Assembly: GCA_024275315.1 (NCBI GenBank)
Contig: JAJRZK010000049.1
Span: 74,577-138,576, forward strand
Origin: Nitrospirota bacterium
GTDB lineage: Bacteria; Nitrospinota_A; UBA7883
Length of the DNA stretch: 64,000 bases
Direction of reading: 5' to 3'
In this document: piece after piece, positions 586-23,938 of the stretch
Numbering within the stretch: position 1 is the stretch's first letter
Layout: each line of letters starts with the position of its first letter
Program-made: the position numbers and the translations under genes
Notes under the pieces: generated by a model
What the model saw: only the letters and a program-made list of their open reading frames with translations
Databases searched by the model: none
What the model was told of the DNA's origin: nothing

Positions 586-1563
586 ATGCGCGCTCTGGAG
601 GATATGAAAATCCTGATAGTCGACGACTCCAGGATGTTCAGGAACCTGATCCAGACTCTGCTCAACGACTCCGGATATAAAAACGTGGAATGGGTGGATT
701 GCGCCGAAGGGGCCATGAAATACTTCGGCATGAACAGCGATGGTGAATCAGATCCAAAAGGAACCGACCTGGTGCTGATGGACGTGATAATGAAGGAGAT
801 GGATGGCATCGAGGCTTGCAGGCGGATAAAAAGCGACGAGCGGCTGAATGATATTCCCGTCGTCATGGTCACATCGATTTCAGAAAAGAAAAGCCTGCAA
901 AAAGCGTTTGAAGCCGGCGCGGTCGATTATATCACCAAGCCTTTCGACCAGGTCGAGGTCCGCGTCCGGGTCGGGTCTGTGTTGCGGTTAAAACGTGAAA
1001 TCGACGAGCGCAAAGACCGTGAACGAGAGCTTGCCATAGCAAACAAGGAGTTAAAAAGGCTGTCATCACTCGACGGATTGACCGGGATCGCCAACCGGCG
1101 GTATTTCGACGAGCACATCGAGGCGGAGTGGAGGCGGGCCATGCGCGATTCAAAACCTCTTTCCATTATGATAATCGACATCGATTTTTTTAAACCCTAC
1201 AACGACCATTACGGACACCAGGGGGGTGATAGCTGTTTGAAGCAGGTCGCCTGCGCAATTAATGATTACGCAAGGCGGGGCGGAGATTTCGCGGCCAGGT
1301 ATGGCGGCGAGGAGTTTGTGGTTACCCTGGCCGGCACAGACAGGGACAAAGCCGCTAGCATGGCGGAAAAATTGCGCGAAGCGGTGGAATCGCTGAGGAT
1401 ACCACACGAAAAATCGAAAGCGAGTAGCGTGGTCACAGTCAGCATAGGCGTGTCCACGGTGAATCCGAACACCGAAATGCTCCCCTCGACACTGATCGAG
1501 CTGGCCGACAAGGGCTTGTATCGCGCGAAGGAAAAAGGCCGTAACCAGGTCCAGGTTTTTTAA
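586..1563 (+). CDS. Response regulator receiver-GGDEF diguanylate cyclase (PleD-like)
   Basis: N-terminal 'KILIVDDS...LVLMDVIMKEMDG' receiver domain. C-terminal GGDEF domain with a 'GGEEF' active site and 'RYGGEEF'. ATG at 586 is preceded by GGAAAGG. Confidence 0.85.
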   Translation: MRALEDMKILIVDDSRMFRNLIQTLLNDSGYKNVEWVDCAEGAMKYFGMNSDGESDPKGTDLVLMDVIMKEMDGIEACRRIKSDERLNDIPVVMVTSISEKKSLQKAFEAGAVDYITKPFDQVEVRVRVGSVLRLKREIDERKDRERELAIANKELKRLSSLDGLTGIANRRYFDEHIEAEWRRAMRDSKPLSIMIIDIDFFKPYNDHYGHQGGDSCLKQVACAINDYARRGGDFAARYGGEEFVVTLAGTDRDKAASMAEKLREAVESLRIPHEKSKASSVVTVSIGVSTVNPNTEMLPSTLIELADKGLYRAKEKGRNQVQVF

Positions 1564-1620
1564 CGATCTCTAAAGGACGGAGAGGCTTGTTTGAGCCCGG
1601 ATAGGCTGACCCCGGAGGGC

Positions 1621-2019
1621 TTATTTGAGCCCTTTGGAGTTGAAAAACGGGCCGTATTTCTTGTCCGTTTTGGCTATATGCTCCTTGAGCCATTCCACCA
1701 CGAAATTCATTATATCGTCTTTCAGCACGATGTCGCCGGAGTAGTAGTTGGAATAAAACTCCTTCACCTGCAACTTGAGATCGTCATGCTCTTTTTTGTG
1801 CTCTTCATACTCGTCGTACCCGTAGGCGATCATGTCCATTTCCTCGGCAAGGAAATGTTTGCTGGTATACTCCAGCAACTTGTCGAGGATGGCGCCGATA
1901 TCGTATTTCCCCTTCTCTTCTCTTATCCCACGGTGCAGATCGTCAACCAGCTTTACAAGCTGTTTGTGCTGCGCGTCGAATTTAATCACGCCGACGCTCA
2001 AGCTGTCTTTCCATTCCAT
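1621..2019 (-). CDS. Bacteriohemerythrin (HHE cation-binding domain)
   Basis: 132 aa. 'WKDSLSVGV..FDAQHKQLV..H..EE..M..YGY..Y..HK.EH' and C-terminal 'MNFV.EWL.EHI..TDKKY' match bacterial hemerythrins. Confidence 0.85.
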   Translation of the reverse strand: MEWKDSLSVGVIKFDAQHKQLVKLVDDLHRGIREEKGKYDIGAILDKLLEYTSKHFLAEEMDMIAYGYDEYEEHKKEHDDLKLQVKEFYSNYYSGDIVLKDDIMNFVVEWLKEHIAKTDKKYGPFFNSKGLK

Positions 2020-2271
2020 TGTCGCAGACCCTTTATCTGAATATATCGTGTAAACAGTTCAACTCGACCAGTACAAAACCACCGTATTATAACATTTGGC
2101 AAGCGACAATCTATCATTTTGATTCATGGTTTTACGTTATATGCGAATTTTTATGGGATTTGTGAATAAAAGGTTGAAATTCAACAATTTCCCCGCAGGC
2201 GTATAGCCAGAAAGCCAATGCCGAAACACGTTGCGGCTTGTATTTTCTTTCCAGGTTAGGTACGGATAAAT

Positions 2272-3405
2272 CTATCGATCCCGCCCCGCGCCAGACCAGC
2301 TGGCCAGGCGTTCACATATCTCGTCAAGATCAAGCGATTCATTCACGACACCGGCTTTCAGGGCGGAAGCGGGCATTCCGCCCACCACGCACGTTTCCGG
2401 ATCCTGCGCCAGCACCGGAAAACCCTTTGTGGCGAAATCCTTCGCCCCTTTGGAGCCGTCATCCCCCATCCCGGTCATGATTATCGCCACGGGGCTCAAA
2501 GCGACCGATGCGGACGTGGTGAACAAGAGATCCACCGATGGTTTGTAGGGCGTTTTCTGTCCCTCGTGGACTTTCAGTACCAGCTCTTCATCCTTGTTGC
2601 GCACCACACCGCTGTTTTTTCCCCCCGGCGCGATGACCACCATGCCTGGCTTCAACACCATCCCATCGCTTCCCTCCAGCACGTTCAGCCCGGTTTTTCT
2701 GTTGAGATGGTAGGCCAGGCTCGCCGTGAATCTGGCTGGCATGTGCTGGGCTATCACCATGGGGCAGGGCAATTCCCCGGTCGACGTCAGAAAGTCGGAC
2801 ATCACCGACGGCCCCCCGGTCGAAACGCCTATCACCACCAGATCGACCGGCGTAACGGGGGTAACCTTTTCCATGGCCGGCCTGCCCGTGTCTGGCGCGG
2901 CGCCTTGCGTCGCGGCAATAAAACCCTCTGAACCGGCGCCGGACGGGATATCCGCGTGATCGCGCCTCTTTTTCTTTTCCAGCGAAAGCCGGTGCTGGAC
3001 AAATGGTAGCGAGTTTTTGCCCCAGAAATGTACTTTGGTCAATATCTCGTTGTTGACGCGGAGCAGTTCGAACTTCGCCATGGAATTTTTCTTGGAGATA
3101 AAATCAACCGCTCCGTGCTCCAGCGCCTGTATGGTGGAGGAGCTTTCCTCCTGGGTATAGTTGCTGACCATGATGATGGGAGTCGGAAACCGGGCCATGA
3201 TCTCGCGTGTGGCCTGTATGCCATCCATGTTCGGCATCTCCACGTCCATGGTTACCACGTCCGGCCTGTTTTTTTCCATGATTTTCAACGCCGCCTGGCC
3301 GTCCTCGGCTTCGCCGATCACTTCTATCTCCGGATCGGTCTCGACGATCGACCTGATGGTAAAACGGAAAAAGAGCGAATCATCTACTATGAGAAGCTTT
3401 ATCAT
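2272..3405 (-). CDS. cheB: Chemotaxis response regulator protein-glutamate methylesterase CheB
   Basis: N-terminal receiver ('LLIVDDS...VVTMDVEMPNMDG'). C-terminal methylesterase ('VVIGVSTGGP', 'HMPARFT', 'GGMPASA'). Confidence 0.9.
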   Translation of the reverse strand: MIKLLIVDDSLFFRFTIRSIVETDPEIEVIGEAEDGQAALKIMEKNRPDVVTMDVEMPNMDGIQATREIMARFPTPIIMVSNYTQEESSSTIQALEHGAVDFISKKNSMAKFELLRVNNEILTKVHFWGKNSLPFVQHRLSLEKKKRRDHADIPSGAGSEGFIAATQGAAPDTGRPAMEKVTPVTPVDLVVIGVSTGGPSVMSDFLTSTGELPCPMVIAQHMPARFTASLAYHLNRKTGLNVLEGSDGMVLKPGMVVIAPGGKNSGVVRNKDEELVLKVHEGQKTPYKPSVDLLFTTSASVALSPVAIIMTGMGDDGSKGAKDFATKGFPVLAQDPETCVVGGMPASALKAGVVNESLDLDEICERLASWSGAGRDR

Positions 3406-3484
3406 GAGTCTGCTGTGGCGCCGGGATCAACCGGTGGCGAAACCGGGGGCCTGGCTGATGGAGACTTGCGCTTCAGGCGTTTTT

Positions 3485-6400
3485 TCATATCCACGCCGAT
3501 TTTTTTATGGCCTCGAGCAGGTCCTCCGCGTCGAGCTTGAGCAGAAACTGGTCCACACCGGCTTCTAAGGCCTGGGACACATACTCCTCCTGGGCGTAAT
3601 TGGTCAGCATTATCACCGGTAGCGAAGGATGTATGCGCTTGACTATCCTGGTGAATTCGCATCCGTCTATACGCGGCATTTCCAGGTCGGTGACGACCAG
3701 GTCCACACCATTTACAAGCCCCAGCCCCTCTTCGCCATCCTCCGCCTGGGTCACGTTGTAGCCGGCTTCGGTCAGAATGCGGCATATCATGTCACGCTGA
3801 GTCTGGGAATCGTCTACCACCAGTATGTTGTTGATGGTCCTGGCGTTCGTCTGCAACCTTGTTTCGGGCTTGATGGAGTATGTTTTTGTTTTGTTTTTTT
3901 CCGCGGCGGACGCAAAAACCTGGTCTGTGGAAAACAACAGCGTCACACGATTGTTGATTATAAGAGCCTCGTCCAGCGCCAGCTTGCCGGTGGCCCGTTC
4001 CAGCGCGGATTTTTCCACCTTGACAAGGCCACTCAGCTCGTTAACGATCAGCCCCGCCTTCCGCCCATCCTTTGTCAGGACGATAACGTACACTTTCTCC
4101 AGGTACGGAGGGGACTCGAAACCGGTTATGTACGGAGCCTTGGTTACAGGCAGGATTTCGTCGCCGTACTTGATCACATCCTGGGCGCCCACGTTTTCGA
4201 TCTGGTTTATGTTGATGATGCTGAGCTTGTTGATCCCCTTGAGGGCCATTCCGTATTGCTCCACCTGTCCGTCGCTTAGCAACAGCACCAGTTCCTCGTT
4301 GAAAACGCTCGTATCGACCCTCATCCTATCGGCGGTTTCAGAGTCTATGAGTTTGGCGACATTTATAATTTCGGTCACGTCCAGGATCAGCGCGATGGAT
4401 CCGTCTCCGAGTATGGTGGCGCCAGATATGTATTTCGCGTTGTAAATTCCCTGGAGCGAATCCAGCGGCTTGATCAGCACTTCCTCCTGGCCGAGCGTCC
4501 TGTCCACCACCAGGCCCACCTGTTTTATCCCGATCTTCACCACCACGATATCGAGCTGGTTCGATTCGTCGATGATGATAACCTCGCTTTCCAGGTTAAG
4601 CAGCTTGTTCATGAAAATGACCGGGAGTATCTCGTCTCTCAAACGCACGACCGGAACACCGCTGACCCATTCGATGCCCGATAGTGGCAACCGGACGGTT
4701 TCCATAACCGAAAACAGGGGTATGGCCAGCCTTTCCTCCTCCACCTGGCACAAAAGCGTCTGCATGATGGCCAGGGTCAGCGGGATGCGTATCTTTATCC
4801 TGGTCCCCTTTCCCGGTTGCGATTCAATATCTATCTGGCCCTTGAGGTTTTCTATGTTGGTCTTGACCACATCCATCCCCACACCGCGTCCTGAAACGTC
4901 GGACACCTCCTCCGCGGTGGAAAACCCGGGCAGGAATATCAGGGAAAGTTTCTCGGCGGGGCTGAGGGCCTCCACGGCTTCCGCGGTCAACAGCTTTTTC
5001 TCGATCACTTTGGTTGCGATGACATACTGGTCTATCCCTTTGCCGTCGTCTATGATCTCTATGATGATCGAGTTGCCCTCCTGGAACGCGTTTAAGTGTA
5101 TGGAACCGCGCCGCGGTTTGCCCGCGGTGACCCGGTCGTCGGGGAACTCTATTCCATGATCCACGCAATTGCGGATGATATGCATCAGCGGATCGGAAAT
5201 GGATTCTATCAGGTTCTTGTCCAGCTCCGTCTCGGAACCGCTGATGATGAGGTCCGCCTCCTTGCCCAGCGCTCTGCAAAGGTCGCGGACCACACGGTTG
5301 AACTTGCTGAAAATGTTGCCCACAGGCAACATCCTGGTGCTCATCACGGCCCCCTGCAGGCTACCGGTCACCATGTCGAGCTGGCTGGCCAGGTTGTTGA
5401 AGTCCTCGATGAGCTGCTCTGTTTTCTCCTCGTTTACCAGTTGGTGATTAAGCTGGTTGTACCGGTTCCGGAGAAGGACAAGCTCTCCCACCGAGTTCAT
5501 CAGATCGTCCAGCCGGGAGACGTTCACCCGGATTGTGTTTATTTTCTCCTTTGCGTGCTGGATGGACGGAGGCGTGTTCCCGACACGTTTATCGCCCGGC
5601 TTGCTTCCCGGTTGCGGCTCTACGACTCCTCCGTGCCGGGCGGACTGGATAGCCTCCAGGGCCATCATCAGCGAGCTTGTGTCTATATCTCCCTCGTTAT
5701 ACGTGGTCTTGAGGTTCTTGTTAAAAGCTCTCAGGGTGTCGTTTACCTCAAGACACGTGTCCAGAAGCTCTCTTGGAACAGGGGTTTTCGTCTCACGGTA
5801 ATATGACAGGGCCGATTCGGTGGAGTGGCAAAGAGCGCCGAGCTTTTTGAAACCCAGCGCGTTGGACATCCCTTTCATATTATGGATCTGCCGGAAACAG
5901 TTGTTTATCTCGTCCATCAGCCCCGGGTCGGCTTCCAGCTTCAGCAACGACAGCTCTATAACGTCGATATGCTCTCCAAACTCCTGCAGGAAATCAGGCA
6001 TGTACATATCGAGCATATGTTTGCGTTCCTCGTCCATCTCCTCCGTGGCGGGCGAGGGGGCGCTCTCGGGTTTGAGCTGTTCCCGGGCGGCGGCGAGCCT
6101 CGACACCAGGTTTTTTATGTTGATATTTTCATCGCTGGATTTGTCGGTGAGGCTGGAGTTGAACTCCCGAAGAAGATCGTTGAACTCGAACAGCAGGTCC
6201 AGCGTCTCCACCGGAGCCGGGATGGCTTGTGATCTTATCTCCGACAAAACAGACTCAACCCCGTGGCACAGATCCTCCAGCTTGGCCAGGCCGAGCGAGT
6301 TGGATATCCCTTTCATGTTGTGCGTGAGACGAAAAATGGAGTTTATCTCATCCTGGTTCGACGGCTCCTTTTCCAGCGATAACAGAGCGGCGTCTATGGT

Positions 6401-7126
6401 GTCGATATTTTCGCCCAGCTCCTGGACGAAAACGGCGATATGACCTGCTATGTCTTTTGGTTTTTCCTTCGGCTCCGGCGGGGGGGGTGGTGTTTTCGAG
6501 TCCAGAAGGATCGCAAGTTTCGTGTCGAACGGGACGGTGTCTATGGTTTCGTCGCATGTCGGGTCCATGATCTGGTTGCGCACATAGTCCATGCAGTTGT
6601 CGAACCCTTGCAGTGTGTCGATCAGCTCGATGGACACGTCCCGGTCGCTAACCTCGTAGATGGCCGATTCCAGAGATTTGCAAAGAGCCGCAAGCCTGGG
6701 CATGCCGGTTTTTTCCGCCTGCTCGCCCACCGCCTGGCAATAGGCGAGGCACGCGCCAAGCTCTCCTTTGGCGCCGGGGTTGTCCTTGAGTTTCGCAAAA
6801 GATGCGCTGAACAACTCCGCCTTGGCCGTAATTTCGTCCGTGTATTTTTTTTGCGCTTCCGGTTCCAGGGCTGGTTTTTCCTCTACGGGTCCGGGGTTGC
6901 TCTTGGGGGTGTCTAAGTCGGCGGCGGTTTCCTGCGGTGAGGGCCCGCCCTGCGTGTCCGGCTCTGGCTGTTCCGGGGAAACGTCGTGTGACTTGGTGAA
7001 AAACTGCCCCAGGATCTGCTCGTCGGTGCTGAACGGATTTTCAAACAGGGGCTTTCTTGGCTTCTTCGCCGATTTGGCCCGTTTGCGTTTTTTGCCCGGG
7101 ACCGGCTTTTTTTCTTTATTCGCCAT
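3485..7126 (-). CDS. cheA: Hybrid CheA-type histidine kinase: Lys-rich N-terminus, 2 Hpt domains, dimerisation + HATPase_c, 2 CheW-like domains, C-terminal receiver (ChpA/FrzE-like)
   Basis: Two 'HNMKG' Hpt motifs. 'GRGVGMDVV' lies in an H-box-less CheA catalytic core. Tandem CheW-like regions follow. C-terminal 'ILVVDDS...LVVTDLEMPRIDG'. Its start overlaps the upstream parA-like stop by 11 nt. Confidence 0.9.
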   Translation of the reverse strand: MANKEKKPVPGKKRKRAKSAKKPRKPLFENPFSTDEQILGQFFTKSHDVSPEQPEPDTQGGPSPQETAADLDTPKSNPGPVEEKPALEPEAQKKYTDEITAKAELFSASFAKLKDNPGAKGELGACLAYCQAVGEQAEKTGMPRLAALCKSLESAIYEVSDRDVSIELIDTLQGFDNCMDYVRNQIMDPTCDETIDTVPFDTKLAILLDSKTPPPPPEPKEKPKDIAGHIAVFVQELGENIDTIDAALLSLEKEPSNQDEINSIFRLTHNMKGISNSLGLAKLEDLCHGVESVLSEIRSQAIPAPVETLDLLFEFNDLLREFNSSLTDKSSDENINIKNLVSRLAAAREQLKPESAPSPATEEMDEERKHMLDMYMPDFLQEFGEHIDVIELSLLKLEADPGLMDEINNCFRQIHNMKGMSNALGFKKLGALCHSTESALSYYRETKTPVPRELLDTCLEVNDTLRAFNKNLKTTYNEGDIDTSSLMMALEAIQSARHGGVVEPQPGSKPGDKRVGNTPPSIQHAKEKINTIRVNVSRLDDLMNSVGELVLLRNRYNQLNHQLVNEEKTEQLIEDFNNLASQLDMVTGSLQGAVMSTRMLPVGNIFSKFNRVVRDLCRALGKEADLIISGSETELDKNLIESISDPLMHIIRNCVDHGIEFPDDRVTAGKPRRGSIHLNAFQEGNSIIIEIIDDGKGIDQYVIATKVIEKKLLTAEAVEALSPAEKLSLIFLPGFSTAEEVSDVSGRGVGMDVVKTNIENLKGQIDIESQPGKGTRIKIRIPLTLAIMQTLLCQVEEERLAIPLFSVMETVRLPLSGIEWVSGVPVVRLRDEILPVIFMNKLLNLESEVIIIDESNQLDIVVVKIGIKQVGLVVDRTLGQEEVLIKPLDSLQGIYNAKYISGATILGDGSIALILDVTEIINVAKLIDSETADRMRVDTSVFNEELVLLLSDGQVEQYGMALKGINKLSIININQIENVGAQDVIKYGDEILPVTKAPYITGFESPPYLEKVYVIVLTKDGRKAGLIVNELSGLVKVEKSALERATGKLALDEALIINNRVTLLFSTDQVFASAAEKNKTKTYSIKPETRLQTNARTINNILVVDDSQTQRDMICRILTEAGYNVTQAEDGEEGLGLVNGVDLVVTDLEMPRIDGCEFTRIVKRIHPSLPVIMLTNYAQEEYVSQALEAGVDQFLLKLDAEDLLEAIKKSAWI

Positions 7127-7856
7127 TTAGCACTTTCCGCACTATCTTGTCATAATCCTCCGCGCCATACGATTTTGGCGCATATGTGAAAATATCCTGA
7201 TGAGCCCCGACCGCTTCGGACAGCTTTACATTTTTTCTTACCGGGTTGGATACGTTTTGACCGAAACGGCTGTTGAGACTTTCAAGCACTTCCTGGCTTT
7301 TTCTGTCCCGTTTATCGTAAAACGTGGGGATAATCATCCCGATTTTCAGTTTATGCCCCATCCTGGACTGAATCCATTCCAGGTTGTCGATCACTTCCCT
7401 GGCTCCGATCAACGAAAAATAATCCATCGCCACGGGAACAAAAGCCTCGTCGGCGTATAACATGGCGTTCAGGTTGAGCAGGTTCAGCGACGGAGCGCAA
7501 TCCAGGATCACGTAGTCCATGCCGTCGAGATTTTTCATGGCCCTGATCAGGATTTTCTCACGGTCGTTCCGGGTCGCCATGAAAATCTCCGCCTGGGCCA
7601 GTGTCTTGTTGCTGGGGATCAGCCAGAGATTGTCATCTATCGGATACAGACATCTATCGAGATCGATGTTTTCCACCAGAAGATGAAACAGATTATGGCT
7701 GAACCTCAGGTTGTACCAGATCCCCAGACCTCCCTGGGGGTCCATGTCGATAAGCAGTACTTTTTTGTTGTGGCGGCGCAGGCCAGACGCTATGGTCGCC
7801 GACGTGGTCGTCTTTCCCGTTCCGCCTTTCTGGTTGATCACGACTATTTTACGCAT
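7116..7856 (-). CDS. ParA/MinD-family ATPase embedded in the chemosensory operon (ParC/PpfA-like)
   Basis: Deviant Walker A 'NQKGGTGKTT'. 246 aa. Sits between cheW and cheA with overlapping stop/start. Confidence 0.85.
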   Translation of the reverse strand: MRKIVVINQKGGTGKTTTSATIASGLRRHNKKVLLIDMDPQGGLGIWYNLRFSHNLFHLLVENIDLDRCLYPIDDNLWLIPSNKTLAQAEIFMATRNDREKILIRAMKNLDGMDYVILDCAPSLNLLNLNAMLYADEAFVPVAMDYFSLIGAREVIDNLEWIQSRMGHKLKIGMIIPTFYDKRDRKSQEVLESLNSRFGQNVSNPVRKNVKLSEAVGAHQDIFTYAPKSYGAEDYDKIVRKVLNGE

Positions 7857-7869
7857 TCTGGCGCCATCT

Positions 7870-8337
7870 TCACGCAGGTTGCGCTTCCTGGCCCGGCTCG
7901 GCGGATTCCTGCGGATCCCGGATCAGGTTTTTTATGTCGATAAGAACCACGAGCGAATCCAGACCCTTGTAGACACCAAGTATATGTTTGGGGTCGATGA
8001 TGGTTGTTTCCGACCGCATGGGGTCGATGCTGTCGGCCGGAATTTCCATGACGGTCGATAACGAGTCCACCTGGACGCCGATTTTTTTTGTCTCGTCGAG
8101 TTTGCAGATTATTATCCTGGATTCGTCGCTGTCCTCGGACATGGACAGGTTCAGCTTCGCCCGCAAATCGATAAGGGGCACGATCAGGCCGCGCAAATTG
8201 ATGATGCCTTTCAGGAATTTCGGAGCGTTGGGGATTATGGTGATACGAAATTCCGACAGAAATATGATCTCCTGGACGACCAGGACATCTATGCCGAAAA
8301 GCTCGTTGCTTATATAAAAATTGATATATTTTGGCAT
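7870..8337 (-). CDS. cheW: Chemotaxis coupling protein CheW
   Basis: 155 aa. Typical CheW core 'LFGIDVLVVQEI..........IINLRG'. Confidence 0.9.
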   Translation of the reverse strand: MPKYINFYISNELFGIDVLVVQEIIFLSEFRITIIPNAPKFLKGIINLRGLIVPLIDLRAKLNLSMSEDSDESRIIICKLDETKKIGVQVDSLSTVMEIPADSIDPMRSETTIIDPKHILGVYKGLDSLVVLIDIKNLIRDPQESAEPGQEAQPA

Positions 8338-8768
8338 ACTGGTTCCTCAACGGCTTGGGCCGAGCACCGTTTCAGTTGACAGACTCGGATGACTTTTCCC
8401 CATCAAGAGCCCGCTACTACGCAACGTCACATTGCATACTACATTTTATGGCAAGATGGACGCAAGTTTTTCGATGTTTGCGCAAAGCGGCTTCGGGGAC
8501 GGGCGCCCGGTTCCGGTTTTTTCACGAGGTGCGAATCCCGAAAACAACTGGATATTCCGCGTAAAATCAAACATGGACGGGCAATCGCCAACTTTGCGGA
8601 AACATGCGTAATTTAATTTCTTTCAACAGATAAAATGTGTTAGTATTGCAATCTTTTAAAGCTCGCATTGTATATATTTGTAGCATCCGGAGAATGCCTT
8701 AAACAGCAGGTGTTTTTTTTGGACCGATTCTTTTAAAAGCAATTAAGGGTTTAAGAGGGTTTTCGTAG

Positions 8769-9910
8769 ATGCGATTCATGACCGGCAAAGCCGTCGCTTG
8801 TGCCATTGCCATAGCGCTGGTTATCATAACATCACCCGTTCCCGCCGCTTCCAGCATGACCAACGAGGAGATGGAGAAGAAAATCCAGGCGCTCGAGGAG
8901 AAAATAGAGGAACTCGAGGCGAATTCCGAAATAAACTCCGCCATCGGCGACGACCTGGAAACCCGGCTTGACAACCTGGTGAGAATTTCCGGCTACCTGG
9001 CCGTGGAATATATCGCCACCGACAAAAAGATGATGTCAGCAGGTTCCGGATTCATCATCTGTCGCTCTTTTTCGACCGGGACCTGACCGACAAGTGGAAA
9101 ATCTTTTCCGAAATCGAGTATGAAGACGCCCCGTACATAGAGTATTCCACCTCCAAAGAAACAATAAACGGCGAAGGCAAGATACTGGTGGAACAGGCGT
9201 ACACGGACTTTACCGCCGACCAGAAGCTTAACGTCCGCGCGGGCCGGTTTCTCACTCCCGCGGGGATATGGTTGATACACCACTATCCACCCTTTGTTCC
9301 GACCCAGGCGCGGCCACAACATATCAGGAAGATTTTTCCGCAATACACGGACGGCGTCTCCGTTTTCGGCGATTTTAACATGGACACCAACCTGCTGTAT
9401 TACAACCTGTATTACGGTAACGGGGAGGGTAACCAGGGGCATGGAGACGGGAACCAGGACAAGGCTGTTGGTGGTCGTCTTCAGTTCATTGCAAACGGCC
9501 CGTTTGAGCTTAAGGCAGGCGCGTCGGGCTATACAGACACGCTGAACAACGGCACGGGAAAAACATCGATCGGGGCCGACCTGGCTTTCAGGTACGCTGG
9601 GATGAAGTTTCAATCGGAATACGCCATCGGCGATTATGATCCCGCGGAGGGAAACACATACAGGTCCATCGGCTATTACGCCCAGGTGCAATACTCTATC
9701 GGCAGACACACCATATTTTACCGGTACGATTTCTACGAGCCAAGTGACCAGGCGGACCTCGACCAGGTCACCGTCAATACCGGCGGGATGAACTATCATT
9801 GGACTCCCACGGTTGTCTCCAAGATAGAGATCAACTCCTACGCCCACGAAAGCGGTTCTTCTGCAGAGGACTATGTCGAGTGGATATTGAGTTCCGCGAT
9901 TTTCTTCTGA
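8769..9910 (+). pseudogene. Outer-membrane porin-like gene (signal peptide, coiled coil, beta-barrel; OprO/P-like or DcaP-like). It is split by a +1/-2 frameshift near 9021-9050.
   Basis: ORFs 8769-9086 (frame 0) and 9188-9910 (frame 2) are contiguous when read across the A5 run 'gacaaaaag' (9021-9029): '...VEYIATDKK|DDVSRFRIHHLSLFFDRDLTDKWKIFSEIEYEDAPY...MEQAYTDF...'. The product is rich in aromatic and beta-strand residues and ends in F. Confidence 0.5.
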
Positions 9911-9922
9911 CCGGGATAACAA

Positions 9923-10396
9923 ATGTTTGATATGGGGAAATTTATGGTTTCATTCAGATCGTTGGCCCTCCTGGCGGTAGCGGTTAATGTTTCCATTGCG
10001 CTATCGGCGAACACCGCGTTTTCAGAAACGATAGCGATAATAGTCAACCGCGACAACCCTGTGGAAAGCGTCACCGAGCAGGACCTGAAGAAATTTTATT
10101 CCGATATTTCCGTAAAGTGGTCCACCGGTGAGCGGGTAAAAATATACGATCTTCCCATCAACAACGAGGCCAGGAAAATATTTTCGGCGAAAATTCTGCA
10201 AAGAAGCCCTGAGGATGTGACTATGGAATGGGCGAATAAAAGAATAACCAACACAGCCAAAAATCCTCCCAATACCCTCAAATCCCAGGTGCTGATGCAA
10301 TCGAAGGTGGCGTCGGAAAAGGGGGGGCTCGGATATATGTTCGCCGACAAGGTTAACCACAAGAAAGTAAAAGTCGTCCTTACTATCAAAGAGTAG
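9923..10396 (+). CDS. Small secreted PstS/PBP-like (phosphate/phosphonate-binding-like) domain protein
   Basis: Signal peptide. 'IAIIVNRDNPV...L...F' pattern of periplasmic binding-domain proteins that often sit next to MCP/GGDEF sensors. Confidence 0.5.
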   Translation: MFDMGKFMVSFRSLALLAVAVNVSIALSANTAFSETIAIIVNRDNPVESVTEQDLKKFYSDISVKWSTGERVKIYDLPINNEARKIFSAKILQRSPEDVTMEWANKRITNTAKNPPNTLKSQVLMQSKVASEKGGLGYMFADKVNHKKVKVVLTIKE

Positions 10397-10432
10397 GTGG
10401 GCCTTGTCCGGTTTTCATTCTCGTCAGGGGCT

Positions 10433-11986
10433 ATGAAATTTAATATTTTAGGCAGAATCAGGATCAGGGCAAGGCTGATTATCGGCCTTGGCATACTGGT
10501 TTTGATGCTTGTTTACACCGGTGTGATGTGGCGCATCGCCTCGAAAAATATCATCAAGGGGCTTTACGACATCAGCGAAGTCCACTATCCACTCGCCGAA
10601 GCCAGCATGGAAATGCAAATGGCCATAATCCAGGTCCAGCAGTATTTCACCGATTTGTCCCTGAGCGGCGCGAAAAAGGATGAAAAAGAGGCTAACCGGT
10701 GGAAAGATCATTTCACGAAATACGCCCTTAAGGCCAGTGAAATCGCCGTAAACGACAAGATGAAAAAACAGATAGCCGACATCATGAATGATTTTGACAA
10801 ATATTTCAAAATGGCTGATGTCATGTCCAAGATTTACGCCGCCGAAGAGGACGAGGCGGGGTCGAGCATCAAAGTGGACGTGGACGCGTTTGTCGAGATC
10901 CTTCGCGGCAAGATCAACAACATTGTCAACATGACCAAGGCGAACATGATTGTGACCCTCGGGGAGACAAAGCGCATCACCAACACCACCGCCACCAGCA
11001 ACAACCTGCTTACCCTGATGATGTCGGTTATATCGATCGTCCTGGCGCTGATGCTGGCCAACTCCATCACCAGCCCCATCAACGACATAATTGTCAGGCT
11101 CAGGGCCATTGCCGAAGAGAGCGTCGCGGACCTGTCCAAAAGCATCAACGTGGAATCCAACGACGAGATTTCCGAGGTGGGTCAACTGTTCAACCAGTTC
11201 GTGGGAAAGATAAGGGCGCTTATAATACGGCTTGCCGATATGGCCGAGCACCTGGCCTCCGCCACGACGGAGCTTTCCGCCACGACAGAGCAGTTTTCGG
11301 GTCAGGCCAGGAGCCAGGCGGACCAGGTAAACCACATCACCCGCGACATAGAAGAGGTGAACAAGGCCGTGGCCAACATAGCCAGCAGGGCTGTGGACGT
11401 GGCTCGCACCTCCACGGAAACCCACGAGCTGGCTCTTGACGGCGGCAAAGTCATAAACAACAGTTCCGACGCTATAAAAAAGCTTTCGGACTATTCTTCC
11501 AAGATAGGCAACATTCTCCTTGTGATAGAGGACATAGCGAAAAAGACCGACCTGCTGGCGATCAACGCGGCCATCGAAGCCGCCAACGCTGGTGACCAGG
11601 GCAAAGGGTTTGCCGTGGTGGCCGAAGAGGTGAGAAAGCTGGCGGAGCGCACGACGCGGTCCATCGGCGAAATCAGCCGCATGATACAGGACATCCAGAC
11701 GTTCACGTCGGAAGCCGTCGATTCCATGAAGCACTCCAGCCAGGTGATGAGCAAGATCATTATCGAAGCCACGCAGGTCAACCAGATGATAGACGAGATC
11801 GCCGCGTCCACCGAGAAACAATCGGGGATAACCAACGGCATGTTGAAAAACGTGAGGTCTGTCCACGAGCTGAGCCAGGGGTTCGCTGAGCAGGCGGAAC
11901 AGTCCGAACAGGTCGCCAACGAGATTAACAACCAGTCGCTGAAACTGCAAAATGTCGTGGATGAGTTCAACGTTAATTCCAGGTAG
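10433..11986 (+). CDS. Methyl-accepting chemotaxis protein (2 TM, periplasmic helical sensor, HAMP, MCP signalling domain)
   Basis: ATG at 10433 is preceded by AGGGGC (the track's GTG at 10397 is an alternative). Conserved 'LLAINAAIEAANAGDQGKGFAVVAEEVRKLAERT'. Confidence 0.85.
   Translation: MKFNILGRIRIRARLIIGLGILVLMLVYTGVMWRIASKNIIKGLYDISEVHYPLAEASMEMQMAIIQVQQYFTDLSLSGAKKDEKEANRWKDHFTKYALKASEIAVNDKMKKQIADIMNDFDKYFKMADVMSKIYAAEEDEAGSSIKVDVDAFVEILRGKINNIVNMTKANMIVTLGETKRITNTTATSNNLLTLMMSVISIVLALMLANSITSPINDIIVRLRAIAEESVADLSKSINVESNDEISEVGQLFNQFVGKIRALIIRLADMAEHLASATTELSATTEQFSGQARSQADQVNHITRDIEEVNKAVANIASRAVDVARTSTETHELALDGGKVINNSSDAIKKLSDYSSKIGNILLVIEDIAKKTDLLAINAAIEAANAGDQGKGFAVVAEEVRKLAERTTRSIGEISRMIQDIQTFTSEAVDSMKHSSQVMSKIIIEATQVNQMIDEIAASTEKQSGITNGMLKNVRSVHELSQGFAEQAEQSEQVANEINNQSLKLQNVVDEFNVNSR
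11240..11950 (+). repeat. Copy 1 of an about 0.7-kb near-identical duplicated segment (MCP signalling domain)
   Basis: Nucleotide-level near-identity with 12880-13585, e.g. 'gccgagcacctggcctccgccacgacggagctttccgccacgacagagcagttttc'. Confidence 0.8.
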
Positions 11987-12077: not shown

Positions 12078-13793
12078 ATGGCCGGAAAACTGCACTTCTC
12101 AAAATCACTGAAATTCAGGCTCCTGGTCCTGATAGGCCTGCTTTTTACACTATTTTCCATCTTCAACATGTACATCGCCGTATCCGACCAGAGACAGCAG
12201 GCGCTGAAACAGGCCCGAACAATTTCCGAGAGCGCCGCCAACGCCATGCTTAACGCTTTGAACATTATGATGATCCAGGACACCATCGCCCAGCGGAAAC
12301 AGTTTTTGCGGATGATGAAAGACAACCTCGGTTTCGACGAGATCAGGGTTTTCAGGAGTGAATCGGTCACAAGGCAATATGGTCCCGGGCTTGAAGGTGA
12401 ACAACCGGTGAACAGCGCCGAAAAAGAAGTGCTTGAAAACGGGAAACCAAGGTTCGATGTCATCAAAACCCCGCAAGGCAGGAAATTCCGCGCGATGGTC
12501 CCTTTCCTGATGGTCAAGGACAGGTCCGGCGTCAACTGTCTGGATTGTCATGACGGAAAAGTCGGCACCGTAAACGGCGGTGTGAGCATCCTGATGGGCA
12601 TGAAAGAGATAGACGCCGCGCTTTTCACCAACCTCACCGAGCTTGTCATCATCAATCTGCTGGGGCTGGTGGCTCTTCTGGCGAGTATATTGTTCATCCA
12701 GCAAAAGCTGGTTCTCGGTCCCCTGTCCACCATGCGCGAAACCATGGAGTCCGTGGAGCGCGACTCCGACCTGCGCAGGAGTATCGAGATTAAGTCTGAT
12801 AACGAAGTGGGCATGATGTCGAGCGCGTTTAACAAGATGATGCAAAAATTCCAGGCCATCATCGGCCAGATGGCCAGAACAGCCGAGCACCTGGCCTCCG
12901 CCACGACGGAGCTTTCCGCCACGACAGAGCAGTTTTCAAGCCAGGCCAGGAGCCAGGCGGACCAGGTAAACCACATCACCCGCGATATAGAAGAGGTGAA
13001 CAAGGCCGTGGCCAACATAGCTCAAAGCACCGTGGATGTGGCTCGCACCTCCACGCAAACCCACGAGCTGGCCCTCGACGGCGGCAAAGTCATAAACAAC
13101 AGTTCCTACGCCATAAAAAAGCTTTCGGACTATTCCTCCAAGATAGGCAATATCCTTCTCGTGGTGGAGGACATAGCGAAAAAGACCGACCTGCTGGCGA
13201 TCAACGCGGCCATCGAAGCCGCCAACGCTGGTGAACAGGGCAAAGGTTTCGCCGTGGTGGCCGAGGAGGTGAGAAAGCTGGCGGAGCGCACGACGCGGTC
13301 CATCGGCGAAATCAGCCGCATGATACAGGACATCCGGTCGTTCACGTCGGAAGCTGTCGATTCCATGAAGCATTCCAGTGAAGTCATGAACAAGATCATT
13401 CTTGAAACGACCAGGGTCAACGAAATGGTGGACGGGATAGCGACCTCCACCGACAAGCAATCGGGAATAACCAGCGGCATGCTGGCGAAAGTAAGATCGG
13501 TCCACGAGCTGAGCCAGGGGTTCGCCGCGCAGGCGGAACAGTCCGAACAGGTCGCCAACGAGATTAACGACCAGTCGCTGAAACTTCAGGAATGGGTCGA
13601 CCAGTTCCACATAGACTACAAATCGTACGGCGACCCGTCCGACGGGGGCGGCCTGTCCGACGGGGGCGGCCCGTCCGACGGGGGCGGCCTGTCCGACGGG
13701 GGCGGCCTGTCCGACGGGGGCGGCCTGTCCGCTGGGGGCGGCCCGCCCGACGACAGGAAAATCGACGAGATGGACCAACCCTGGACGAGATGA
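12078..13793 (+). CDS. Methyl-accepting chemotaxis protein with periplasmic CXXCH (c-type heme) sensor domain and a C-terminal (SDGGGL)n repeat tail
   Basis: TM1 'FRLLVLIGLLFTLFSIF'. Periplasmic 'GVNCLDCHDG'. TM2, HAMP, and a signalling domain about 95% identical to the upstream MCP. C-terminus 'DGGGLSDGGGPSDGGGLSDGGGLSDGGGLSAGGGPPDD'. Confidence 0.85.
   Translation: MAGKLHFSKSLKFRLLVLIGLLFTLFSIFNMYIAVSDQRQQALKQARTISESAANAMLNALNIMMIQDTIAQRKQFLRMMKDNLGFDEIRVFRSESVTRQYGPGLEGEQPVNSAEKEVLENGKPRFDVIKTPQGRKFRAMVPFLMVKDRSGVNCLDCHDGKVGTVNGGVSILMGMKEIDAALFTNLTELVIINLLGLVALLASILFIQQKLVLGPLSTMRETMESVERDSDLRRSIEIKSDNEVGMMSSAFNKMMQKFQAIIGQMARTAEHLASATTELSATTEQFSSQARSQADQVNHITRDIEEVNKAVANIAQSTVDVARTSTQTHELALDGGKVINNSSYAIKKLSDYSSKIGNILLVVEDIAKKTDLLAINAAIEAANAGEQGKGFAVVAEEVRKLAERTTRSIGEISRMIQDIRSFTSEAVDSMKHSSEVMNKIILETTRVNEMVDGIATSTDKQSGITSGMLAKVRSVHELSQGFAAQAEQSEQVANEINDQSLKLQEWVDQFHIDYKSYGDPSDGGGLSDGGGPSDGGGLSDGGGLSDGGGLSAGGGPPDDRKIDEMDQPWTR
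12880..13585 (+). repeat. Copy 2 of the duplicated MCP signalling-domain segment
   Basis: See copy 1. Only scattered substitutions. Confidence 0.8.
13632..13752 (+). repeat. 18-bp tandem repeat (about 6.5 copies) encoding the (S/P)DGGGL tail of the MCP
   Basis: 'ccgtccgacgggggcggc' / 'ctgtccgacgggggcggc' units are visible directly in the sequence. Confidence 0.85.
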
Positions 13794-17183: not shown

Positions 17184-17187
17184 CGGC

Positions 17188-17452
17188 TGGTTTCGAACGG
17201 AACGGCCTGTCTTACCGGGCTGTCACTATCGATAAATTGATATCCGCATAAAAGAATAGCTGCTGGTTCCGGGCGAAACGGTCTGTCTTGCCGGGCTGTC
17301 ACTATCGATAAATTGATATCCGCATAAAAGAATAGCTGCTGGTTTCGAACAGAACGGCCTGTCTTACCGGGCTGTCACTATCGATAAATTGATATCCGCA
17401 CAAAGAATAGCGGCTGACCCCGGGCGGAACGGTCTGCTTTACCTGTGGGTGT
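17188..17452. repeat. Intergenic tandem repeat, 76-bp unit x about 3.5, between convergent helicase and yqgE-like genes
   Basis: Units at 17188-17263, 17264-17339 and 17340-17414, plus a partial fourth. Unit core 'gtcttaccgggctgtcactatcgataaattgatatccgcataaaagaatagc'. Confidence 0.8.
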
Positions 17453-18116: not shown

Positions 18117-18311
18117 ACGCGACCACTCAGGATATATCTGTTAATCAGCCTCCTAGCCTAACGCAAAAAAAGGGCTATTAAAACGAAAAATTCTCTCTTT
18201 ATACGCACACCGGTCACGCCTGAAATGTGCATGCCGAAAAAATAAAAAAAACATCCATAAAGCCTCCGGCCGCGGCGGAATTGATGTAGAATTGAAAACG
18301 TCGGTTTTAAC

Positions 18312-18660
18312 TATCGCCCTCGCGACTCGGGTGTCGCCCTCGCGACTCGGGTGTCGCCCTCGCGACTCGGGTGTCGCCCTCGCGACTCGGGTGTCGCCCT
18401 CGCGACTTGGGTGCCACACTCGCGACTTGGGTGCCACACTCGCGACTTGGGTGCCACACTCGCGACTTGGGTGTCACACTCGCGACTTGGGTGTCACACT
18501 CGCGACTTGGGTGCCACACTCGCGACTTGGGTGCCACACTCGCGACTCGGGTGTCGCCCTCGCGACTCGGGTGTCGCCCTCGCGACTCGGGTGTCGCCCT
18601 CGCGACTTGGGTGTCGCCCTCGCGACTTGGGTGTCGCCCTCGCGACTTGGGTGTCGTCGG
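18312..18660. repeat. GC-rich 20-bp minisatellite, about 17 copies, with block-ordered unit variants, upstream of a diheme cytochrome c gene
   Basis: Perfect 20-nt register. Units A 'cgcgactcgggtgtcgccct' x4, B 'cgcgacttgggtgccacact' x3, C 'cgcgacttgggtgtcacact' x2, B x2, A x3, D 'cgcgacttgggtgtcgccct' x2, then a degenerate unit. Confidence 0.9.
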
Positions 18661-18720
18661 GTTTGCTTTATGGACGCGCCATCGAAATATCCGGCTGTAG
18701 CCCTGAATCATGGTCAGATA

Positions 18721-19638
18721 ATGGCAGTATATGTTTTGTCACGCGTAAAGGTGAGCGGTACGAACTCGCGCCGTTCCAACGCCGCTTCAAGACCGTTTTC
18801 GCCGGTCACGGTTGCGTGCCTTGTTTTGGTAATGGCGTTATTATCCATCCCCTGCGGATCGTTTGCCACGCCCGGTTCTGTGGAGAACGGCGCCGCGCTT
18901 TACATGGTGCATTGCGTCCAGTGTCACGGGCCCGGGGGCAAAGGCGATGGAACAGCGGCCCAATACCTGCCAAGGCGGCCAAGGGATTTTACCGAAGGGT
19001 TGTACAAGATAAAAACAAGCCCGCCGACAACCATGCTCTCCAGGGACGAGGATATTTATTATTCGATAACGAAAGGCATGTCAATAGCCGGAATGCCGCC
19101 GTGGGAAAAAGTTCTCACTGACAAACAAAGGTGGGACCTGGTGGCGTATTTAAAATCCCTTTCGGATTTGTACGACGATGAGCCCAACCCGGAGCCGCTC
19201 GATTTGGGCGGGCGGATTCCACCTTCACCGGACAGTGTAAAACGGGGCAACCGGGCCTATTTCAAGCTGCTTTGCCATGAATGCCATGGTGAGACGGGAC
19301 AGGGACCATCCATTAAAAAGCTCAGGGATGATTACGGCGACAGGATTTGGCCCCGGGACCTGACCAGGACCGACACCTTCATCGGTCCTGCTACACCCGA
19401 TGCGATTTACACCCGCATAACCAACGGCATCCCGCTGACGCCGATGCCTGCACATGTAAAAAACCCGAATAACGATCAGCTCGAGGATCTTAGGTGGGAT
19501 ATAGCCAACTATATAGTCTGGCGGGCCGCTGAAGCGCAGAAACTGAGGAGGGAGAGGATGTTGAAAATCGTGGGCGCGTCCTTGGTTATCCTGGGCGCCG
19601 GCATGATATTCTTTCGGCGCCGTAACGCCAGGGCATAA
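18721..19638 (+). CDS. Diheme c-type cytochrome (class I, c4/CcoP-like) with signal peptide and C-terminal TM anchor
   Basis: 'CVQCHG' and 'CHECHG' heme-binding sites. Hydrophobic 'VACLVLVMALLSIP' near the N-terminus. C-terminal 'LKIVGASLVILGAGMIFF'. The start is uncertain; the track ORF reads through the repeat from 18292. Confidence 0.6.
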   Translation: MAVYVLSRVKVSGTNSRRSNAASRPFSPVTVACLVLVMALLSIPCGSFATPGSVENGAALYMVHCVQCHGPGGKGDGTAAQYLPRRPRDFTEGLYKIKTSPPTTMLSRDEDIYYSITKGMSIAGMPPWEKVLTDKQRWDLVAYLKSLSDLYDDEPNPEPLDLGGRIPPSPDSVKRGNRAYFKLLCHECHGETGQGPSIKKLRDDYGDRIWPRDLTRTDTFIGPATPDAIYTRITNGIPLTPMPAHVKNPNNDQLEDLRWDIANYIVWRAAEAQKLRRERMLKIVGASLVILGAGMIFFRRRNARA

Positions 19639-23176: not shown

Positions 23177-23938
23177 GTGACCCTGGCCATATCTGTCATG
23201 GTGGCGTACCCTGTCGTGTCAAACGCCGGTAAGGTGGGCGCAAGGTTGCCTGTTCCAGCCGGAATCGTCATCATGGGCGCCGACGCCAGCCAGCTGAAGG
23301 GGCAGATTTCCGAACCCAGGGCGAAAGTGGAATGGTACATGGACGAAACCCCGCGGAAAAAGGTGGAGTTGCCCCCCTTTTTTATTGACGCCACGGAAGT
23401 GACCAACGCCGAGTATCAGAAAATCATCCCTGACCACAGCTATCCCGCCAACCTGGCGGACCATCCCGTGGTGAACGTCACATGGGACATGGCGGACGAA
23501 TATTGCCGGAAAGTGGGGGGCGCTCTTCCTACGGAGGCCCAGTGGGAGCGGGCCGCCAGGGGTGATGACGGGCGTATATACCCCTGGGGAGACCAGTTCG
23601 ATCCGGCCAACGTTGTGTATATGGATAGCGTGAAAGGTGGTTCAAAACAAAAGGTGGGATCGTTCGATCGTGAGCAGAGCGGCTCTTCACTTCTGGGCGG
23701 CACGAGCCCCGTGGCGTCTCGTGAGAACGGCAAGAGCCCTTTTGGAACCTATGACATGGCGGGCAACGTGTGGGAGTGGGTTGACGGTTATTATGACGAA
23801 AGCAAGGGACTGCGACTGTTAAAGGGCGGGTCCTGGCTCTCTCCGCAATCTTCCGTCCGGTCGTCCACCCGTCTGGGTGACGAGGGCGGAGGCAGGTTCA
23901 ACGATTACGGATTCCGATGCGCGTACGATCATAAATGA
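23177..23938 (+). CDS. Periplasmic formylglycine-generating-enzyme (FGE-sulfatase/SUMF1) family protein
   Basis: 'PVVNVTWDMADEYCRKVGGALPTEAQWERAARG', 'YPWGD', 'YDMAGNVWEWV', 'LKGGSW', 'GFRCA' are FGE-domain hallmarks. N-terminal signal-like region. Confidence 0.8.
   Translation: MTLAISVMVAYPVVSNAGKVGARLPVPAGIVIMGADASQLKGQISEPRAKVEWYMDETPRKKVELPPFFIDATEVTNAEYQKIIPDHSYPANLADHPVVNVTWDMADEYCRKVGGALPTEAQWERAARGDDGRIYPWGDQFDPANVVYMDSVKGGSKQKVGSFDREQSGSSLLGGTSPVASRENGKSPFGTYDMAGNVWEWVDGYYDESKGLRLLKGGSWLSPQSSVRSSTRLGDEGGGRFNDYGFRCAYDHK

Follow-up and report, generated by a model that had tools for sequence, protein, structure and literature searches.

The window analysed here, a stretch of 64,000 nucleotides (nt) from Nitrospirota bacterium (assembly GCA_024275315.1, contig JAJRZK010000049.1, positions 74,577 to 138,576 of the forward strand), carries a chemosensory gene row in which the gene for a ParA-like ATPase lies between cheW and a hybrid cheA. 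We describe this row together with a short N-terminal tag on the CheA kinase that may mark it as the partner of the ATPase. An aconitase gene lies at the window's far end, and its product is 80–84% identical to proteins of Nitrospinota metagenome-assembled genomes (MAGs). An earlier reading of the sequence (the original prediction) had listed six genes in the order cheW, parA, cheA, cheB, hemerythrin and GGDEF, and all six were recovered at the positions and on the strands proposed, with strong Pfam and NCBIfam matches:

7870–8337, minus strand: cheW, a single CheW domain in a protein of 155 amino acids (aa) (Pfam CheW, 1e-29 over aa 4–141)
7116–7856, minus strand: ParA-like ATPase, 246 aa (Pfam AAA_31, 1.4e-43; CbiA, 1e-19)
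3485–7126, minus strand: hybrid cheA, 1213 aa (Pfam Hpt twice, 6e-30; H-kinase_dim; HATPase_c; CheW twice, 2e-36; REC, 8e-26)
2272–3405, minus strand: cheB, with an N-terminal REC (1e-25) and a CheB_methylest domain (2e-50) in Pfam (NCBIfam PRK00742, 351 bits, cut-off 293)
1621–2019, minus strand: single-domain bacteriohemerythrin (Pfam Hemerythrin, 3e-16; NCBIfam bact_hemeryth, 4.7e-40, 136.7 bits, cut-off 84)
586–1563, plus strand: WspR-like REC-GGDEF protein (Pfam GGDEF, 2e-51; REC, 4e-27), convergent on the hemerythrin gene

Read on the sequence, the stop of parA and the start of cheA overlap by 11 nt (ATGGCGAATAA), whereas cheW, lying upstream, is separated from parA by a gap of 13 nt; the overlap originally described for both junctions thus stands for parA/cheA only. 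The spacer between cheB and the hemerythrin gene measures 252 nt, in agreement with the 250 bp reported before, and the hemerythrin stop lies 57 nt from that of the convergent GGDEF gene. The catalytic segments of CheB (GVSTGGP, AQHMP and GMGDDG) are intact in a motif scan. Across the 64 kb, three receiver (REC) domains were detected by a profile built from such domains; they belong to CheA, CheB and the cyclase, leaving no REC-only gene and hence no CheY in the window. No cheR was present among its open reading frames (ORFs) of at least 200 aa, so that the predicted lack of both cheR and cheY was borne out, and the larger ORFs included neither flagellar nor pilus genes. With CheY, CheR and flagellar genes all missing from the 64 kb, we rejected an ordinary flagellar chemotaxis operon. 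The module is a non-flagellar-type chemosensory unit (cheW, parA, hybrid cheA, cheB), divergent from a second unit encoding a porin, a binding protein and two methyl-accepting chemotaxis proteins (MCPs). A riboswitch or other intergenic RNA element was likewise rejected, the only Rfam match in the window being one tRNA.

A Soj-type ATPase encoded in overlap with a hybrid CheA

By its Walker motifs, the ParA-like protein belongs to the ParA/Soj branch of the ParA/MinD superfamily: it has a deviant Walker A (KGGTGKT, aa 10–16), a Walker A' (DMDPQG, aa 37–42) and a Walker B motif (VILDCAPS, aa 116–123), and residues K10, G11, G12, K15, D37, D39 and D119 are invariant across 40 relatives. The nearest solved structure is that of Thermus thermophilus Soj (1WCV, 8e-37), and the protein ends about where Soj ends, a C-terminal membrane-targeting helix or extension of the MinD kind being absent. 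R183, which is invariant, and K211 align with R189 and R218 of Bacillus subtilis Soj, a correspondence that serves as a lead only. A role of the Soj arginines in DNA binding has been described (10.1101/766287). The protein is a Soj-type ATPase and a probable nucleoid binder. None of its 120 best matches, extending down to ~40% identity, was from Vibrio, Rhodobacter or Pseudomonas, and a metagenome scan with the ParA alignment, run with overly general patterns, returned only distant relatives of at most 44% identity, none of them che-linked. The contig collection held no exact match to the ParA of the window.

The hybrid CheA comprises, from the N-terminus, the proposed tag, a His-less histidine phosphotransfer domain (Hpt0), two further domains of this type (Hpt1 and Hpt2), the dimerisation and kinase domains, the CheW-like P5 domain, a second CheW-like domain and REC. 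The parts that matter for the argument are the following:

6989–7126, minus strand: proposed ParA-partner tag, CheA residues 1–46, a basic stretch followed by NPFSTDEQILGQFF, delimited from conservation and alignment
6500–6862, minus strand: Hpt0 (aa 89–209), a degenerate P1/Hpt-like helical bundle with Gln in place of the phospho-His (LAYCQAVGE versus FRQIHNxKG in orthologues)
5687–6445, minus strand: Hpt1 and Hpt2 (Pfam Hpt in two stretches, 6e-30), with His in FRLTHNMKG (nt 6308–6334) and FRQIHNMKG (nt 5870–5896)
3506–3826, minus strand: C-terminal REC (Pfam REC, 8e-26), which has its DD, D (in VVTDLEMP), T and K

With its N, G1 and G2 boxes (HIIRNCVDHG, DDGKGID and GRGVGMD) and Pfam matches that all exceed their cut-offs, the protein is a hybrid, multi-Hpt CheA histidine kinase. 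The two Hpt, two CheW-like and REC domains named in the original prediction are all there, but the third, His-less Hpt had been missed. Hpt0 scores below the Pfam Hpt threshold (E = 0.036); it aligns with the intact first Hpt of CheA orthologues (BLASTP to that of P0122, 4e-10) and is predicted by AlphaFold2 with a local confidence (pLDDT) of ~85–97 over aa 91–210, as means of 10-residue blocks. The best-matching folds for this model are CheA P1 domains (3KYJ, 1I5N and 1TQG; target-normalised TM scores of 0.72–0.77).

A conserved N-terminal tag in the proteins encoded downstream of ParA

The N-terminus of CheA is strongly basic, with 13 Lys or Arg within the first 26 residues, and AlphaFold2 predicts residues 1–88 to be disordered. 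From comparison with its relatives, the tag can be written as a run of basic residues followed by [DN]P[LF]..E.I[LM]..F[FY], with a short acidic stretch between [DN]P[LF] and I[LM] and two or three residues between I[LM] and F[FY]; it reads MANKEKKPVPGKKRKRAKSAKKPRKPLFENPFSTDEQILGQFF in the window and MAKKKKPGFSDPFSTHEEILDRFF in locus L001. We surveyed the gene directly downstream of ParA in ~170 fetched loci. Where ParA was at least 50% identical to that of the window, the downstream gene was tagged in all 12 loci, as it was in L173, L174 and L175; the proportion was 40 of 74 for ParAs of 38–50% identity and 1 of 69 below 38%. The tag was also highly specific for this position: among 6125 mechanical ORFs of at least 80 aa from all loci, 44 carried it within their first 60 residues, and 43 of these followed directly after ParA. 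When the 34-residue tag peptide was searched with phmmer, none of 1.84 billion representative proteins matched, which is to be expected of such a short query.

The tagged proteins are of three unrelated types, namely CheA, small proteins and FtsZ, and their tags align column by column. Hybrid CheAs form the first type, tagged in eight of the eight cases in which a cheA follows a ParA of this clade, in eight Nitrospinota loci. The second consists of proteins of 85–113 aa from Bipolaricaulota, Myxococcota and other MAGs, which follow sister ParAs of 45–56% identity and whose C-terminal segment bears a weak resemblance to ribbon-helix-helix proteins (Pfam RHH_1, E = 0.12 only). In this the pairs are like type Ib-like ParAs with small centromere-binding proteins of the ParF/ParG kind, except that the DNA binding of the small partners is only putative and that in the window CheA takes the place of the small partner. 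In L175 (316–2474), the sister-clade ParA and its tagged 113-aa partner adjoin HTH_17 and PIN-domain genes, which suggests, as judged from gene context, that pairs of this type are partition modules of mobile elements. The third type is a genuine FtsZ (Tubulin and FtsZ_C domains), found in L009 and L073. In the 'Thermotogae' MAG locus (L009:10734–11936) and in the Bipolaricaulota locus (L073; ParA at 7714–8451), ftsZ directly follows and overlaps the gene for a sister-clade ParA, and the tag reads MAKNKSIGNDPLDGIMANFY...; the arrangement suggests a ParA that may act directly on FtsZ. More distant ParAs are followed by a classical ParB with its own LGKGL-type N-terminus.

A natural control is provided by three CheA orthologues (P0123–P0125), which are 50% identical, share the three-Hpt, dual-CheW and REC architecture and have the same divergent MCP and upstream cheW. 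In these loci cheW is followed directly by cheA; parA is lacking and so is the tag, and the presence of the tag therefore co-varies with that of parA. Gene content, the coupling of parA to cheA, and the conservation, specificity and co-variation of the tag can all be read directly from the loci. As a separate observation, the three orthologues (from L170, L171 and L172) have long, Lys/Ala-rich N-terminal tails resembling histone H1, for example MAKRKKAKKAEAKTPAGAKEKRPVKSTRKK, and L170 has Tad-pilus genes 5–10 kb downstream.

The parA-cheA pair is the constant part of related loci

Comparison of the loci with a CheA-partnered ParA showed that the gene row varies around a fixed core. The closest relative, a JGI metagenome contig (L003, ParA 94% identical), has the same layout, including the hemerythrin gene and the convergent REC-GGDEF gene. 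In L001 (65%) the order is MCP, cheW, parA, cheA and cheB, followed by genes for a GAF-MshEN-T2SSE ATPase of the PilB/MshE type, two REC proteins, a protein of unknown type and CheX, without hemerythrin or GGDEF genes. L173 and L174 (63%) have cheW, parA and cheA, whereas in L164 (54%), which reads GAF-GGDEF, cheW, MCP, parA, cheA and ComFB, the MCP gene is inserted between cheW and parA. Two loci with names from Nitrospinia or Nitrospinae, L005 (56%) and L167 (53%), have parA followed by cheA, in L167 with a cNMP-binding gene upstream of parA. The invariant pair is thus parA followed by cheA, with cheW, cheB, hemerythrin and the cyclase variable, and the two genes overlap by 8–14 nt in the window and in all seven of these other loci.

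The CheA-partnered ParAs cluster as one clade in a simple neighbour-joining tree (83 of 100 bootstraps), apart from the ParAs that partner small proteins or FtsZ, which suggests a single recruitment event. Two further ParAs of 35% identity that lie beside che genes, those of L077 and L083, fall outside this clade. They come from Bacteroidota MAGs (Ekhidna and Vicingaceae; L077:9162–14130 and L083:10001–20711), where the ParA in the che cluster is followed by a protein of 143–227 aa with a ParB-like N-terminus (MALGKN...). Because these ParAs lie outside the clade and have a different downstream protein, the association of ParA with che clusters seems, from the tree and gene order, to have arisen more than once.

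CheA as a candidate direct partner and cargo of ParA

Partners of ParA/MinD ATPases bind and activate the ATPase through a positively charged, disordered N-terminus, and what remains of the partner binds or forms the cargo (PMC10241942, PMC11407121). The tail of CheA fits this description because of its many Lys and Arg residues and its predicted disorder up to residue 88. Since, in addition, the tag is conserved and shared with the partners of sister ParAs, and the ParA itself is Soj-like, we propose with moderate confidence that CheA serves ParA directly, both as partner and as cargo, with no adaptor of the ParP or TlpT kind in between. On the nucleoid, the ATP-bound ParA dimer would receive the tag, which, by analogy with ParB, McdB, TlpT and ParP, would stimulate its ATPase; the ParA gradient would then tether, distribute or segregate the receptor arrays that contain CheA. 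Binding, ATPase activation, positioning and DNA binding are the steps that we infer. In a related system, Alvarado et al. engineered a fusion of the ParP N-terminus to CheA P5, and a tag on CheA is therefore mechanistically sufficient there; the tagged CheA of the window looks like a natural version of this construct.

Several points weigh against this proposal. Both MCPs are transmembrane proteins, so that a nucleoid-based, PpfA-like mechanism would have to act on membrane arrays, and we know of no polar anchor here. The CheA orthologues that lack ParA evidently work without it. The tag could bind a third factor shared by the three partner types instead of ParA. The sample is small, with ~7 independent CheA-partnered lineages, all named ones from Nitrospinota, and the tree is of the simple neighbour-joining kind. 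Finally, the mapping of the Soj arginines is tentative.

Extending the proposal to the whole clade, we see an even chance that these ParAs use a short, portable N-terminal tag that evolution has moved between unrelated cargos, the small DNA-binding-like partners, FtsZ and CheA.

Among the other explanations for the ParA, the one that fares best also has it bind the CheA tag, but to regulate and not to position: if, for example, the N-terminus of CheA were sequestered in an ATP- or nucleoid-dependent way, this could gate kinase output or couple signalling to the cell cycle. The tag evidence is the same for both readings, and with the tag adjoining the Hpt domains, binding could affect phosphotransfer. 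Sister ParAs moreover pair with FtsZ, on which members of the ParA family such as MinD, MipZ and PomZ act by inhibition (10.1101/766287). The known che-linked ParAs, however, act by positioning (PMC11407121), and we regard a purely regulatory ParA as unlikely.

We consider it more unlikely still that the system is of the ParC/ParP or PpfA/TlpT type proposed originally, in which ParA positions the arrays via an adaptor, either a CheW-like protein or the N-terminus of a chemoreceptor, and CheA is a passenger only. The location of a ParA-like gene within a che operon and adjoining cheW is indeed an arrangement known from Vibrio and Rhodobacter sphaeroides (PMC11407121, PMC5706961). Judging such a system by its adaptor requires a look at the receptors encoded divergently from cheW:

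10397–11986, plus strand: MCP1, with Pfam HAMP and MCP signalling domains and two hydrophobic segments, collinear with a Tsr/Tar-type NCBIfam profile
12078–13793, plus strand: MCP2, a paralogue of MCP1 by Pfam, with two hydrophobic segments, a sensor containing CLDCH (CxxCH) and a C-terminal GGLSDG repeat

In ParC/ParP systems (Vibrio cholerae, Vibrio parahaemolyticus and also Pseudomonas), as here, the ParA-like ATPase is encoded in a che operon; its immediately downstream partner, like the putative one here, is a component of the array core unit that binds via its N-terminal region (PMC5706961). ParP, a dedicated adaptor that resembles CheW and has a proline-rich linker, is the partner in those systems, whereas here the tag is on the kinase. 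Downstream of parA lies cheA and not a parP-like gene, whose product would consist of a ParC-interaction domain at the N-terminus, then a Pro-rich linker and then a CheW-like AIF domain; the only CheW is encoded upstream and is bare, its domain covering aa 4–141 of 155 without an N-terminal interaction region. ParC also depends on the polar landmark HubP, for which no equivalent is known here. The system that hosts ParC/ParP is flagellar, of the F6 type; the window, in contrast, combines a hybrid multi-Hpt CheA-REC with the lack of a CheY.

The likeness to PpfA/TlpT of R. sphaeroides lies in a ParA-like ATPase from a che operon; PpfA is presumed to rely on non-specific binding to the nucleoid, and an array component activates it through its N-terminus (PMC11407121, PMC5706961, 10.1101/766287). 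The difference is that a cytoplasmic chemoreceptor serves as partner there and a cytoplasmic array as cargo, while in the window the receptors are transmembrane and CheA is tagged. A TlpT-like cytoplasmic, tagged receptor is not among the MCPs of the window, each of which has a domain of ~150 aa between two strongly hydrophobic segments and neither of which carries the tag. Basic residues that tentatively align with the DNA-binding arginines of Soj are kept here, which may add to the likeness. Against an adaptor of either kind also stand the related loci, in which cheA constantly adjoins parA and cheW does not, and the absence of Vibrio and Rhodobacter proteins among the best ParA matches. What stands of the original prediction is the general idea that the ParA serves the chemosensory machinery, which is supported by its translational coupling with cheA in every relative examined; the assignment to the ParC/PpfA type is not supported, given the bare CheW, the transmembrane MCPs and the partner signature on CheA. 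By the sequence evidence, the system would work like ParC/ParP and PpfA/TlpT but lacks both an adaptor of the ParP kind and a tagged receptor in the cytoplasm, and its ParA belongs to a group that otherwise pairs with small proteins or FtsZ.

The least probable explanation, to which we give very little credence, is that the ParA partitions DNA, either the chromosome or a mobile element, and happens to be located in the che cluster, the CheA motif having another role such as DNA or membrane binding. Sister ParAs do pair with small, possibly ribbon-helix-helix proteins, in L175 beside the PIN and HTH_17 genes typical of mobile elements, and the closest solved relatives are Soj proteins, but no CheA-partnered locus has a parB or small-partner gene next to parA, the overlap with cheA is kept across ParAs diverged to 53–65% identity, and loss of the tag coincides exactly with absence of parA.

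Signalling through the hybrid CheA and its possible output

The kinase core of CheA is 43–46% identical to ordinary CheAs as compared to 29–35% for the ChpA type. The CheA-REC fusion, the missing CheY and neighbouring genes for cyclic di-GMP (c-di-GMP) proteins or a pilus ATPase point to the alternative-cellular-function (ACF) or type IV pilus (Tfp)-like class, but the kinase core lies closer to ordinary CheAs. ChpA of the Pil-Chp system, which runs an intramolecular phosphorelay, is similar in having several Hpt domains along with a REC at the C-terminus, and in L001 a PilB/MshE-type ATPase gene stands right after cheB. By analogy with ChpA, a probable intramolecular phosphorelay would lead from the kinase to the proximal Hpt, the CheA REC and the distal Hpt; from there the phosphate would pass to CheB and to another response regulator, for which the neighbouring WspR-like cyclase is one candidate. 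Dual CheW-like domains with a REC also occur in CheA.V of Azorhizobium caulinodans, Azospirillum brasilense and Rhodospirillum centenum (10.1101/2022.05.07.491035). As to differences from ChpA and the CheA.V and CheA.VII–X architectures, the protein of the window has a kinase core nearer to ordinary CheAs than to ChpA-type proteins and is encoded in a window without pilus genes among its larger ORFs; its combination of multiple Hpt with dual CheW-like domains is not among the experimentally studied CheA forms.

The REC-GGDEF protein had been described as PleD-like. Its convergent orientation stands, but with a single REC domain it is WspR-like: among solved structures, those of WspR match it best (3BRE, 4.9e-64, and 3I5A, along the full length, aa 8–322), ahead of PleD (1.7e-57). 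It has a coiled-coil linker, a GGEEF motif (nt 1303–1317; aa 240), an RxxD I-site (RGGD, nt 1276–1287; aa 231) and the phospho-Asp in LMDVIM, and by these motifs it is a WspR-like diguanylate cyclase that is predicted to be active. The hemerythrin retains all di-iron ligands (H18, H55xxxE59, H74xxxH78 and H114xxxxD119), matches the solved Methylococcus capsulatus bacteriohemerythrin (4XPX) and DcrH-Hr, and is a bacteriohemerythrin. Its upstream spacer contains one promoter-like element:

2086–2094, minus strand: extended -10-like sequence TGTTATAAT, seen by eye and not flagged by a consensus scan

It is possible that this element gives the hemerythrin gene a promoter of its own. We also considered a strong intrinsic terminator in the same spacer and rejected it, none being seen.

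As regards output only, the module might act as a Wsp-like surface or redox sensor, with the hybrid CheA phosphorylating the adjacent WspR-like cyclase and the hemerythrin serving as an oxygen-sensing accessory. The Wsp system of Pseudomonas (WspA–F and WspR) likewise has an MCP, CheW, CheA-REC hybrid, CheB and REC-GGDEF regulator, so that five of the seven Wsp protein types are present here, and the cyclase is closest to WspR over its full length, has GGEEF and RxxD intact and carries the only REC in the 64 kb besides those of CheA and CheB. Of the four lineages whose flanking sequence is long enough, three have genes related to c-di-GMP beside the module: REC-GGDEF in the window, MshEN in L001, and GAF-GGDEF with ComFB in L164, L005 having none. 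ComFB is a receptor for cyclic dinucleotides (c-di-NMP) (PMC12448109). With these recurring neighbours, which flank the module in L001 and L164, a Wsp-like output stays plausible. The locus itself is not a Wsp system, since CheR (WspC) and a second CheW (Wsp has both WspB and WspD) are lacking and the REC-GGDEF gene is convergent; it also differs in the inserted ParA, in the several Hpt and two CheW-like domains of CheA and in a cyclase that is conserved only in the nearest relative. Indeed, hemerythrin and REC-GGDEF genes accompany the operon in the 94% relative L003 but neither in L001 nor in more distant relatives, the cyclase gene is not co-transcribed, and the hemerythrin gene has a promoter-like element of its own. 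L001 has a PilB/MshE-type ATPase, REC proteins and CheX instead, and L005 no such neighbour. We therefore treat the Wsp-like output as possible but doubtful, and the pairing of hemerythrin as oxygen input with the cyclase as output, roughly speaking, as a tentative conjecture.

The receptor unit and other features of the window

Upstream of the two MCP genes, the divergent unit contains two further genes:

8769–9910, plus strand: Porin_4-type gene, divergent from cheW, with a frameshift near 9025 after the A-run GACAAAAAG when compared to the intact 410-aa orthologue of L003 (tblastn in frame 1, then 3)
9923–10396, plus strand: small periplasmic-binding-protein-like gene directly upstream of MCP1, with weak PBP_like_2 and PstS-family matches and an orthologue in the same place in L003

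The split porin gene is either a pseudogene or the product of a homopolymer sequencing error. MCP1 and MCP2 form a tandem with near-identical signalling domains and different periplasmic sensors, where L003 has a single MCP. The CLDCH of the MCP2 sensor is a CxxCH haem c motif, and a 3' repeat of an 18-nt unit (6.9 copies, 13629–13752) encodes the GGLSDG units, followed by a short tail ending in DQPWTR.

Elsewhere in the window, 17 repeats of a 20-nt unit (96% matches) occupy positions 18314–18656, at the 5' end of an ORF for a dihaem cytochrome c (18292–19638). The period is not a multiple of three; the array is therefore probably non-coding and the true start of the ORF probably lies downstream. 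Two other tandem arrays were seen, one of 3.1 copies of 76 nt after a DEAD-box helicase gene (17186–17416) and one of 6.5 copies of 17 nt after an HD/HD_assoc (dGTPase-like) gene (58266–58376). The minus strand at 39106–42516 encodes a protein of 1136 aa in which a molybdopterin oxidoreductase is fused to a class-V aminotransferase resembling cysteine desulfurase; its gene adjoins, in an unusual pairing, the gene for an EgtD-like histidine-specific methyltransferase (38088–39083, minus strand; Methyltransf_33, 9e-102). A gene of the FGE-sulfatase/EgtB-like kind lies at 23177–23938.

Implications

ParA/MinD ATPases position many bacterial cargos, and for many 'orphan' ParAs no partner that confers cargo specificity is known. 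To our knowledge, only two chemosensory cases have been dissected so far, ParC/ParP and PpfA/TlpT. The tagged CheA differs from both and seems new: no report of a CheA-borne ParA tag was found in the literature searched, in a library that is incomplete. If the portable tag is real, arrays would be positioned by direct contact between ParA and CheA without an adaptor, the same tag would mark ParAs acting directly on FtsZ, and the clade would offer a natural demonstration of how ParA/MinD positioning systems are retargeted in a modular manner. The ParA-FtsZ pairing flagged here is not known to have been studied. Confirmation would mean that a recognisable tag identifies the cargo, a CheA kinase, directly from sequence, and that array positioning is achievable without an adaptor, as in the engineered fusion of Alvarado et al. 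It would also provide a compact natural pair of peptide and ATPase, of use in testing the encoding of specificity and in synthetic positioning systems. Few members of the phylum Nitrospinota, which are marine nitrite oxidisers, have been cultured, and the result gives a first handle on their chemosensory organisation.

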